Positions 22,251 to 31,487 of a stretch of 64,000 nucleotides of DNA are shown in pieces. The notes under the pieces are model-generated. The model was given only the letters and a program-made list of their open reading frames with translations, ran no database searches and was not told the origin of the DNA. A program made the translations under genes and the position numbers. The stretch covers positions 224,001 through 288,000 of the IMG/VR virus record IMGVR_UViG_3300028840_006907. One strand, written 5' to 3'. Each line of letters opens with the position of its first letter. Position 1 is the first letter of the stretch. This DNA comes from a virus.

Positions 22251-25200
22251 ATGGCCAAGACAAAAAGGAAATGGATTGAGCTGGATTGGTACAATCCCAA
22301 TGCCTTACGTGCACAAGACATACCTTACGATCAAACCGAAAGTGTAAAAGATGCTATAGATAGAGCTGCCTCTGGAGTTCTCGGTCCGACGGGGACCACG
22401 GGTTCGACCGGTTCAACAGGTTCGACGGGTCCAACGGGTCCGACGGGAGCCACGGGTGCGACGGGAGCAGGAATCCAGGGTGAAACCGGAGTCGCTGGAG
22501 TTCAAGGAGCTACCGGAACCGGTGGTGGTGGAGATACTGGTGTCCAGGGTGAGACCGGTTTACCCGGAGCCACAGGAATCCAAGGTACAACCGGTATCCA
22601 GGGAACTACAGGAATCCAAGGTGAAACTGGAATCCAGGGACATACAGGTACAGTTGGAACAACGGGTGTTCAAGGAGAAACCGGTTCTCAGGGTACTACT
22701 GGAATCCAGGGAGAAACTGGAGTAAAAGGTGAAACTGGTATTCAAGGTCAAACCGGTATAGCTGGTGGAGCAGGATTTCCAGGAGCAACTGGAGTCCAGG
22801 GCGAAACCGGAGTCCAAGGAACTACTGGGGTTCAAGGGGAAACCGGGGTTCAAGGAACCACAGGAGTAGCCGGAGCAACCGGAGTCCAGGGAACTACTGG
22901 CGTCCAGGGAACTACTGGCATCCAAGGTGAAACGGGTGTCCAGGGAGATACTGGAGTTGGTGCCACTGGAATCCAAGGAACCACAGGTATCCAGGGTCAA
23001 ACCGGTGTTCAAGGTATCACCGGAGCTTATGGTGGTCCTCCTGGAGAAACTGGTGTCAAGGGAGAAACCGGAGTACAGGGGGCTACTGGAATCCAAGGTC
23101 TTCAAGGATTGCAGGGAACCAAAGGTGAGACCGGAACACAAGGTATTCAAGGCCAGACCGGAGTTCAGGGAGAAACTGGAGTTCAAGGGCAGACTGGTAC
23201 AGGTGCTCCAGGAGCCACTGGAGTTCAAGGGCAGACTGGTATCCAGGGAACCACTGGAATAGGTTTAGGTTCAACAGGAGTAGCGGGAGCAACTGGAATT
23301 CAAGGTACTACCGGAGTTCAAGGTAGGACTGGAGTCCAAGGATTTACCGGAGCTGCTGGTTTAGGTGAAACTGGTATCCAAGGAGCTACCGGAGTCCAGG
23401 GTGCCACAGGTATTCAAGGGACTACTGGTGCAGGAATCCAAGGAGCCACAGGTATTAGTGGTGACACGGGAGTTCAAGGAGCCACAGGAATTAGAGGTAC
23501 TACTGGTGCAGGAATCCAAGGAGCCACGGGGGTTCAGGGCATTCAAGGTCAAACTGGAGCCCAGGGCGAAACCGGAGTCCAGGGTGAAACCGGAATAGAA
23601 GGTTCTCAATTTGCAGGATTTAATTATAAAGCAAAAACAGACAATCAATCTGATACAGATCCTGGTATAGGAAATTTAAAGTGGAGTGCTGTAGCTCAAG
23701 TCACATCTAGTGAGCTTTATGTGGATGATGCTGACGTTAATTCTACGGATCTCAGTAATTTTTACCTCACTTTAAAAGCTGCCGACTCTTTACGTATTGT
23801 TCGTATGGAAGATCCTTCTCAGTATCAGATTTTTAATATAACAAACGTTACTGATAGAACCGGATGGTTCCGTTTATCTGTTACACCTGTTGTTTCAGGT
23901 GGTTCGACTTTTAGTTTAAATGATAATATCATACTGATATTTAGTATATCAGGTCCTAGAGGTCAGACCGGAGTAAAAGGTGAGACTGGAATTCAAGGAA
24001 CTACAGGTGTTGCCGGAGCCACAGGAGTCCAAGGTCAAACTGGAATTCAGGGTCAAACTGGAATCCAGGGCATACAGGGCCAGACTGGAATTCAAGGACA
24101 AACTGGTATTCAAGGTCAAACAGGAATCCAAGGTCAGACAGGTGTTGGCGCTCAGGGTGCTACTGGTGTAGCTGGTCAAACCGGGGTCCAGGGAGAAACT
24201 GGGATACAAGGTCAGACTGGTGCAGGAATCCAGGGAACTACTGGTGTTCAAGGCGTTCAAGGATTAACAGGTGTGCAAGGCCAGACAGGTGCCGGAATCC
24301 AAGGTGAAACCGGAGTCCAGGGTACTCAAGGTTTAACCGGTATACAGGGTCAGACAGGTGCTGGAATCCAAGGAGAGACTGGTGTTCAGGGAAACACTGG
24401 GGCTTTTGGTGGTCCTCCCGGAGAAACTGGTGTTCAGGGAGAAACTGGTGCACAAGGTTTAACTGGAGTCCAAGGTCAAACCGGAGCAGGTATTCAGGGA
24501 GCCACTGGTATTCAAGGAGTTACTGGAGTTCAAGGCCAAACCGGTGCTGGTATTCAAGGAGTCACTGGAATCCAAGGACAAACTGGTATACAGGGTCAGA
24601 CAGGAGTAGCAGGTCAGACCGGAGTCCAAGGAATACAAGGCCAGACAGGAGTAGCAGGTCAGACCGGAGTTCAAGGAATTCAAGGACAAACCGGAATAGC
24701 AGGTCAGACCGGAGTTCAGGGTATACAAGGTCAAACTGGAATTCAAGGGCAGACTGGTGCTGGAATCCAAGGTACAACTGGAGTAGCCGGAGCTACAGGA
24801 GTTCAGGGAATTCAAGGTCAAACAGGAGCTGGAATCCAAGGTACAACTGGAGTCCAGGGAACTACAGGAGTTCAAGGTGAAACTGGTACTGGTATTCAGG
24901 GAGAAACTGGTACGCAAGGTATTCAGGGTCAAACCGGAATTCAGGGACAGACTGGGATTCAAGGTAATACTGGTGTAAAAGGTGAAACCGGAGTTCAGGG
25001 TTTTCCAGGTCCTCAGGGTACGAAAGGTGATACTGGTGCTCAAGGTATTCAAGGTGAGACAGGAACTCAAGGAATTCAGGGCCAAACTGGAGTAGCTGGA
25101 GAAACTGGAGTTCAGGGTCAAACGGGTACTCAAGGAATTCAGGGTCAGACTGGTGTAGCTGGTGCAACTGGTGCGGGAATTCAAGGTCAAACTGGTGTTC

Positions 25201-31487: not shown

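Follow-up and report, generated by a model that had tools for sequence, protein, structure and literature searches.

A 3078-residue collagen-like protein as the probable subunit of a very long, jointed virion fibre in a ~470-kb phage

Among phage appendages, those built from the T4-like gp34-37 proteins with gp38, as well as fibritin, are long, jointed and trimeric fibres with a distal receptor-binding tip, and in some phages a separate adhesin/chaperone gene lies immediately 3' of the tip gene. Regarding collagen-like proteins, BclA of the bacterial exosporium consists of a single tract of GPT-rich triplets and a C1q/TNF-like C-terminal domain. Collagen segments are already known in phage appendages too, and the kind is not new as such; to our knowledge, those characterised in phage fibres are single rods of at most about 320 residues. 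In Escherichia coli, the prophage-encoded collagen-like side-tail-fibre proteins EPclA-D are trimers, which appear as hinged dumbbells in electron microscopy (Ghosh et al., 2012, PMC3368898). In the spike P5 of PRD1 and the capsid binder gp12 of SPP1, both trimeric appendages, a short collagen-like region links the anchor to the distal part, for which cell-surface recognition has been proposed (PMC7602432; PMC8968730). Besides, BclA is glycosylated on its collagen region, and Mimivirus possesses collagen-like fibril proteins together with a virus-encoded hydroxylase/glycosyltransferase (PMC8968730). The present analysis concerns a stretch of 64,000 nucleotides (nt), hereafter the window, corresponding to positions 224,001 to 288,000 of the IMG/VR virus record IMGVR_UViG_3300028840_006907, and more specifically a gene it carries for a collagen-like protein of 3078 amino acids (aa), hereafter the fibre gene. 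With a probability of roughly 0.65, the product of this gene is the subunit of a homotrimeric virion fibre, jointed and of great length, in a ~470-kb phage; the fibre would bear a glycan-binding tip.

The open reading frame (ORF) of the fibre gene occupies positions 22251-31487 on the plus strand (9237 nt) and, as put forward in a sequence-only reading of the window, it is one single frame of 3078 aa running from ATG to TAA. A Shine-Dalgarno motif, AAGGAG, can be read directly in the sequence at 22240..22245 (+), 5 nt 5' of the ATG, and a scan for promoters and terminators 5' of the gene gave promoter hits at or below the shuffled expectation. A chance origin of the frame is excluded, since 3078 codons remain open in DNA of 35-47% GC and Gly recurs at every third residue through 592 triplets. 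That reading had counted five G-X-Y tracts of more than 1500 residues altogether; five are indeed present, totalling 1842 aa, i.e. 60% of the protein, and the Pfam search with the whole protein matches PF01391 (Collagen) alone, with 727.7 bits over 22 stretches.

From the N-terminus onwards, all on the plus strand, a non-collagen segment of 41 aa (aa 1-41; 22251..22373) is followed by the first collagen-like tract, COL1 (aa 42-453, 412 aa; 22374..23609), which matches PF01391 and comprises 131 triplets with nine breaks, including G-A-Y-G-G-P-P-G at aa 261. A first knob domain, D1a (aa 454-567, 114 aa; 23610..23951), separates it from COL2 (aa 568-1008, 441 aa; 23952..25274), with 140 triplets and 11 breaks, mostly G-A-G, and a second copy of the knob, D1b (aa 1009-1122, 114 aa; 25275..25616), precedes COL3 (aa 1123-1544, 422 aa; 25617..26882), with 132 triplets and 13 breaks of the G-A-G type. 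Then come the fibre node domain D2a (aa 1545-1747, 203 aa; 26883..27491), the 69 uninterrupted triplets of COL4 (aa 1748-1954, 207 aa; 27492..28112), the diverged second node D2b (aa 1955-2180, 226 aa; 28113..28790) and, directly adjoining it, D3 (aa 2181-2555, 375 aa; 28791..29915), which has an invariant Glu/His cluster and an insertion. The 120 uninterrupted triplets of COL5 (aa 2556-2915, 360 aa; 29916..30995) lead to the C-terminal domain (CTD), a predicted β-sandwich tip (aa 2916-3078, 163 aa; 30996..31487 with the stop codon). In other words, a globular domain follows every tract on the C-terminal side and, apart from COL1 with its 41-aa segment, also precedes it on the N-terminal side, D3 and CTD having been modelled as monomers. 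The two duplicated domains perceived at the outset correspond to the D1 copies for the one of ~110 aa, with 80% aa identity, and to the D2 copies of ~200 aa for the other, with ~35% aa identity; D3, CTD and the 33 short collagen breaks had not been singled out.

As for the chemistry of the tracts, Thr accounts for 44% of the Y positions (262 Thr for the 592 triplets) and Gln for 45%, the X positions being taken largely by Ile, Val, Gln, Glu and Thr, and the main repeat unit is the hexapeptide G-[I/V]-Q-G-[Q/E/T]-T. All 33 interruptions are located in COL1 to COL3, with none in COL4 and COL5. Nearly all are of the G-A-G form, where one residue is missing, and they succeed each other every 20-29 residues in COL2 and COL3, while two have the form G-A-[Y/F]-G-G-P-P-G, namely the one at aa 261 and G-A-F-G-G-P-P-G at aa 720. 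At the canonical collagen rise of 0.286 nm per residue, the extended rods would measure ~118, 126, 121, 59 and 103 nm from COL1 to COL5, giving ~527 nm for the 1842 aa, and the early idea that collagen length could set fibre length appears plausible. Of similar composition, Pro-poor collagens with Thr or Gln at Y are common among Gram-positive bacteria (PMC3368898).

The globular parts were compared with several collections. When the non-collagen segments were submitted to Pfam, the sole match was PF09956 on D2b, a PHROGs search returned only weak matches of "unknown function", and sequence searches of PDB chains with D1, a D2 profile, D2b plus D3, a D3 profile and CTD (single sequence and profile) gave nothing significant. 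None of 88 homologue hits mapped to the N-terminal 41 aa, which make up a candidate virion anchor. D1 is 39% identical to a putative tail fibre of Pelagibacter phage HTVC010P and, following an exhaustive HMMER scan, is present in 1388 representative proteins, typically with 2-8 copies in each. Collagen repeats of at least 30 aa occur in 45 of the 150 best members of the D1 family, up to a maximum of 795 residues in a protein of 1827 aa, and this association points to a recurrent design in metagenomes, that is collagen rods with D1 beads, of which the focal protein would be the extreme. D2 homologues, with 30-49% identity, include many metagenomic proteins of 600-1800 aa, often with two tandem copies, and D2b is 33-40% identical to products annotated as tail fibre or tail protein in Pseudomonas phage Rollin, Nitrincola phage 1M3-16 and Roseobacter phage CRP-6.

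Homologues of D3 number more than 90, with 30-48% identity. In an alignment of 32 sequences, the columns E93, H95, H104, H108 and H284 are invariant, most of them within the motif ERHG..MD..TH..LH, and this Glu/His cluster could bind a metal on the trimer axis or be catalytic. A D3 homologue in a small phage contig (L009/L004) is encoded directly 3' of the genes for a tape-measure protein and for distal tail or baseplate-hub-like proteins. The AlphaFold2 monomer model built from the 32 sequences reaches a predicted local distance difference test score (pLDDT) of 91 and a predicted template modelling score (pTM) of 0.89, and in fold searches this model resembles phage receptor-binding and tail-fibre domains as well as the baseplate protein TssK. 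Weak fold matches to chitin-binding modules were also obtained; an insertion at about residues 183-256, missing from many homologues, may be a chitin-binding module (CBM5/12-like) and the source of those matches. When used to search for related loci, D2b plus D3 retrieved from IMG/VR a single distant relative, which was also the one obtained from the JGI contigs, and did not retrieve the contig containing the window.

At the end of the chain, CTD is covered by no Pfam family, and 120 homologues with 44-88% identity are found among the matches listed. In all of them the domain is C-terminal, with a median of 0 residues after it; 23 are stand-alone proteins of 154-192 aa, 11 have collagen upstream and four a D1-like domain upstream. 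Its monomer model, with a pLDDT of 96.7, resembles the β-sandwich of carbohydrate-binding modules (CBM) of the CBM6/35/36 type. The next gene, only 12 nt 3' of the fibre gene, encodes a Laminin_G_3 (LamG) protein of 385 aa with a ConA-like lectin fold (31499..32656, +; PF13385, 3.5e-22). A Laminin_G_3 gene stands directly after the CTD gene in five of six loci (the window, L010/L011, L012/L013, L014 and L015), starting within ~30 nt of the fibre stop codon or overlapping it, and these partner proteins are mutually homologous with 30-42% identity. The conservation of the gene pair suggests that CTD and LamG are a functional pair, where the LamG protein may be a tip adhesin or an assembly factor. 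Within the window, four paralogous Laminin_G_3 genes follow each other at 31499-38959 (+), coding for proteins of 385, 740, 763 and 407 aa; the two long ones (740 and 763 aa) have extremely Gly-rich N-termini (Pfam Gly_rich_2), and a small cytidylyl/adenylyltransferase-like gene is intercalated at 37221-37736.

Related genomes were sought by means of the portal, by which 19 IMG/VR loci were recovered. In all five loci with a portal identity of at least 64%, collagen ORFs lie 1.5-8 kb upstream of the portal; no collagen ORF was present within 10 kb of the portal in a locus at 58% (L020) and in 13 loci at 55% or less. Two relatives, L010 (589,645 bp) and L011 (441,848 bp), have portal segments ~83% identical to that of the window and a 708-aa gene 56% identical to the one at 39049-40779 in the window. 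They display a syntenic order made of a protein of 1356 or 1380 aa (~990 aa of collagen), a LamG protein, a 252-aa collagen-CTD protein and again a LamG protein. Length polymorphism, for which the sequence-only reading had pointed to related genomes, is indeed found there. Between the ORFs of L010 (2778-6848) and L011 (2706-6848), the collagen differs by 72 nt (24 aa) in DNA otherwise 99.85-100% identical, and in a second pair, L018 and L019, 99.4% identical over 14.5 kb, the tract differs by 267 nt (89 aa) in a collagen protein whose C-terminal end is a Phage Tail Collar domain (PF07484, 53 bits), its length being 571 aa in L018 (1-1713) and 482 aa in L019 (1691-3136). These differences reflect either a true polymorphism or an assembly collapse. 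Besides length, the tips vary. L022 (portal 81%; ORF 3-1958) again shows G-A-G-I-Q breaks, and its D1 domain is 68-69% identical to that of the window, but its C-terminal domain of ~135 aa is different ('...YTFYNSLGIADATHNII.WYAPYD...') and is shared, along with the G-A-G-I-Q breaks, by L021 (2703-4361); the sequences indicate a putative swapping of tips between related huge phages. With a conserved position, swapped tips and a variable rod length, the locus would behave like a host-range cassette.

Taken together, the following model can be proposed. Three chains would join through the globular nodes, i.e. the two D1, the two D2, D3 and CTD, which would hold the chain register and nucleate five collagen-type triple helices. 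The 33 breaks of the first three rods would act as flexible joints, and the last two rods, which are unbroken, would be stiffer. On the virion, the N-terminus would be proximal and the C-terminus distal, the β-sandwich of CTD presumably forming a distal glycan-binding tip, alone or with the Laminin_G_3 protein. For a large virion that diffuses slowly, such a fibre would widen the capture radius, and through it the first, still reversible contact with a polysaccharide of the host surface would be made. On the basis of domain homology, attachment to the tail is favoured, since the annotated D1 and D2 homologues are all named tail fibre or tail proteins, the D3 homologue belongs to a tail-tip module and a Phage Tail Collar domain is carried by collagen proteins of relatives at the locus.

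Several observations weigh against this model in one or another of its parts. First, the fibre gene is situated between the terminase (1144-3036) and portal (43131-46484) genes, among head genes, and no gene for tail sheath, tube, baseplate or tape-measure protein was recognised in the 64-kb window. Second, the core of D2b matches PF09956 (Phage_cement_2) with 31.8 bits for a cut-off of 24 and over 91 of the 103 profile positions; the same family does not match D2a and gives 19.2 bits, below the cut-off, for the homologue P0001. Third, Pro is found at only 16 of the 1184 X and Y positions (~1.4%) and charge pairs are few, so that a stable triple helix can only be presumed. Fourth, in homologues D3 lies mostly near the N-terminus or in the middle of proteins of 450-1200 aa without collagen, a position which, together with the fold matches to TssK and receptor-binding domains, makes D3 a possible attachment point; D3 might then serve as the anchor of the molecule, from which one arm would extend to either side, altering the assumed polarity. 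Finally, one assembly has a nonsense codon at Gln582.

The first two observations would suit the same trimeric collagen fibre if it were attached to the capsid or to the neck/collar, where it would serve in long-range host capture or environmental sensing, an alternative that must be considered seriously even though it appears rather unlikely. Fibres at such places are exemplified by the fibritin whiskers of T4 and the head fibres of phi29, and a short N-terminus suffices as an anchor to the basal layer in BclA. The collagen ORFs of the relatives also end 1.5-8 kb upstream of the portal, and D2b stands above the Phage_cement_2 cut-off. Furthermore, a short N-terminus is enough as anchor to the capsid in SPP1 gp12 (PMC7602432). 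Against attachment to the head or neck, however, stand the tail annotations of the D1 and D2 homologues, the tail-tip context of the D3 homologue and the Tail Collar domain mentioned above, and the gene order of huge phages is loosely conserved, which makes position weak evidence.

A further question is whether the fibre would be modified. Immediately 5' of the fibre gene, an enzyme of 875 aa (19016..21643, +) combines, according to Pfam, methyltransferase, GT2, TPR and GT9-like regions, and its top NCBIfam match is the SunS-family peptide glycosyltransferase, with 78.7 bits, far under the cut-off. A second multidomain enzyme with methyltransferase, GT2 and TPR regions is encoded at 61866-63947 (+). 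In both glycosyltransferase (GT) genes of the window, the GT2-TPR part is nearest to the SunS family, at scores far under the family cut-off, and the substrates of both enzymes may be virion proteins, not DNA or polysaccharide. GT genes lie at ~1.3 kb or less from the fibre gene in the three loci where the collagen of the CTD protein amounts to 100 aa or more, namely the window, L012/L013 (GT2-methyltransferase and GT2) and L014 (GT1 and a sugar epimerase/dehydratase); no GT gene was seen at L010/L011 or L016, and the contig of L015 is annotated too incompletely to tell. In this sample of six loci, the association of GT and fibre genes suggests a lead. The bolder proposal, tentative and on present estimates improbable, is a glycosylated collagen made by the virus itself, in which the enzyme at 19016-21643 would O-glycosylate the ~260 Thr at position Y, so stabilising the Pro-poor helix, and the LamG lectin would complete the tip. 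Such a stabilisation has a precedent in the cuticle collagen of Riftia, where galactosyl-Thr plays this role, as do the glycans on BclA.

Rather than a virion component, the protein could be a collagen-like adhesin or matrix protein that the infected cell displays or releases, involved in a change of the host surface, in aggregation or as a decoy. The bacterial collagen-like proteins BclA, Scl and PclA are surface adhesins (PMC8968730), and the neighbouring genes include those for glycosyltransferases, lectin-fold proteins and Spherulin4-like putative glycosidases. Nonetheless, neither a signal peptide nor a cell-wall anchor is evident by eye at the N-terminus, where no formal prediction was run, the relatives of all the non-collagen domains are phage fibre-type proteins or are found on phage-sized contigs, and the gene is embedded in a structural block, all of which make a non-virion role very improbable.

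The reality of such a repetitive gene also had to be assessed. The longest exact repeat within it is 89 nt, followed by repeats of 62, 60, 57 and 53 nt, and the repeat families are mostly 60-75% identical, with up to 90% in nt; tandem arrays reach at best 94% (a unit of 87 nt, 2.5 copies) and 93% (135 nt, 2 copies). The initial impression of nucleotide repeats nearly identical over long stretches was thus overstated. As the nt identity between copies is down to 75% for D1a/D1b and ~54% for D2a/D2b, most of the duplication is of old date and recent events are few and local; recent expansion does not hold as a general description but only for a few short tandem units at 93-94%. The exact protein is recorded on two large contigs, including NCBI GCA_016840655.1 JAEORW010000001.1 (469,617 bp), which contains the window. 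In JGI 3300017963, a sample credited to D. Valentine, the contig Ga0180437_10000019 (388,651 bp) shares 99.995% identity with the window along 21,158 nt, the gene being again 9237 nt long. The sole difference from the window is C to T at 23994 (position 2496 of L007), which turns Gln582 from CAA into TAA and splits the JGI copy into 581 and 2404 aa. This TAA may represent a genuine null allele, but also a minority variant or an error of the consensus. Stop-codon recoding by a suppressor was rejected, the lone tRNA of the window being a tRNA-Leu with anticodon TAG (17956-18032, +), located between a minus-strand gene block and the glycosyltransferase gene, with no suppressor; in a tally of 27 long ORFs of the window, TAA is the most frequent stop. 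In addition, a Logan contig (SRR6963591) matches 30863-33782 at 100%, covering the 3' end of the gene, and a cluster look-up with the full protein, the 2404-aa fragment and orfA found none of them in that collection. Since two assemblies give the same 9237 nt with one substitution, the repeat structure is reproducible, bearing in mind that they may come from the same or sister samples and thus represent separate computations on DNA that is not necessarily independent. The warning about assembly-prone sequence applies to the relatives, where the contigs L017, L018 and L022 in IMG/VR stop inside their collagen ORF, which indicates that collagen tracts trouble short-read assembly, but not to the focal gene, on which two assemblies agree. 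An assembly artefact by collapse, expansion or chimera, with a true gene that is shorter or split, could be invoked from the repetitive sequence, these three truncated contigs, the tract lengths that differ between near-identical genome pairs and the broken JGI copy, but it is hardly credible when no exact repeat is as long as a standard read, GCA_016840655.1 and JGI 3300017963 agree although produced by different pipelines, the Logan contig is exact at the 3' end, the frame is intact across five tracts and six globular segments, and each globular domain matches full-length homologues.

Regarding the wider setting, the supposed phage origin of the DNA is borne out, the 469,617-bp contig carrying genes for a terminase, a portal, a protease (49421-50989 in the window) and a major capsid protein (major head protein, 52565-53437). 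Along the window, the neighbours of the fibre gene thus comprise terminase, helicase, glycosyltransferase, LamG proteins, portal, protease and major capsid protein. The closest terminase in a phage collection is 35% identical and belongs to a 485-kb uncultured phage, and when the downstream genes were compared at the DNA level with 50,697 phage records, the only match was one of 130 nt to cyanophages, with 70% identity, hence no close isolate; a scan for related loci with a 576-aa neighbour gave no match. Directly 3' of the terminase lies a second giant ORF of 2337 aa (3040-10053, +), with a BNR/Asp-box-like N-terminus, ~375 aa of G-[IV]-Q-G-x-T collagen and then about five "GIGTTNPQ..LHV" repeats of ~100 aa, which has the GAFGGPPGETG break in common with the fibre gene (28 aa, 79% identity). 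With this collagen-like ORF in the same window, to describe the fibre gene as one of the longest ORFs expected in a phage was excessive; proteins of the D1 family reach 3117, 3202 and 4106 aa. Downstream of the LamG genes, those at 39049-40779 and 41276-42208 (+) have a common region of 310 aa (49% identity), the latter with a weak match to Pfam Spherulin4 below the cut-off, and their products are possibly glycoside hydrolases or depolymerases. Between the structural genes and the second glycosyltransferase gene, a 391-aa protein with two HNH/endonuclease VII-like regions is encoded (60608-61783, +), possibly a homing endonuclease.

What is new at this locus is the scale and the segmentation, with five rods and six globular nodes in a single chain and 1842 collagen residues over a predicted ~0.5 µm, together with a nearly Pro-free Thr/Gln chemistry with periodic G-A-G joints, and three unannotated but widespread fibre families (D1, D3 and CTD) accompanied by the conserved succession of CTD and LamG and a suggestive linkage to GT genes. 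The predicted fibre would be several-fold longer than the long tail fibre of T4 and, if the model is true, it would explain in concrete terms how virions of very large size and slow diffusion find their host. It would also offer a natural system where the number of triplets gives the length of the fibre, as relatives differ by 24 and 89 aa. For metagenomic phages, D1, D3, CTD and the CTD-LamG pair could improve the annotation of receptor-binding proteins. Besides, a Pro-free Thr/Gln collagen next to a peptide-type glycosyltransferase is relevant to collagen biophysics and biomaterials, and, should the collagen prove to be glycosylated, the fibre would be a half-micrometre "fishing line" coated with glycans, and fibre, lectin and glycosyltransferase would constitute a conserved module in a clade of huge phages.

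Coming back to the known systems, the likeness to the EPclP proteins lies in phage-encoded collagen tracts capped by globular domains (trimerising in EPclP), in the modular exchange of tips with differences in tract length by multiples of three residues, and in the G-x-x-G-G-P-x-G break, where Tyr or Phe stands here before Gly-Gly instead of Pro in the EPclP consensus G-X-P-G-G-P-X-G (PMC3368898). The differences are nevertheless substantial, as the longest EPclP tract has 322 aa compared to five tracts and 1842 aa here, and EPclP have ~48% Pro at X and many charge pairs compared to ~1.4% Pro at X and Y. Moreover, when the whole protein and its non-collagen segments one by one were scanned with Pfam, none of the EPclP domains PfN (PF08400), Pf2 (PF03406), PfC (PF06820) and PCoil was detected and, with all the defining non-collagen domains missing, the focal protein is not a member of the EPclP family. 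With the BclA-type proteins of the Bacillus and Clostridioides exosporium, it shares Thr-rich G-X-T repeats, a short N-terminal segment, a terminal β-sandwich and a polymorphism of tract length; BclA is glycosylated, whereas here GT genes are adjacent and glycosylation is possible. Five tracts with interspersed nodes and a viral context set it apart from BclA, and in the fold search with CTD no C1q/TNF entry was present among the 60 best matches, the best being CBM6/35/36 modules. Compared to P5 and gp12, with which PDB sequence searches detected no relationship, the collagen stretches amount to tens of residues there versus 1842 here. Mimivirus is likewise a giant virus with collagen-like surface fibres plus its own modifying enzymes, but it infects eukaryotes and its chemistry is based on hydroxylysine, whereas the modification hypothesised here would be on Thr, and there is no evidence of homology. 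Lastly, T4 provides a functional analogue only, in that its adhesin/chaperone gene following the tip gene compares with the succession of CTD and LamG; with no sequence relationship and with shafts of β-structure or coiled coil, its long fibres measure ~145 nm versus the ~530 nm predicted for the collagen fibre.

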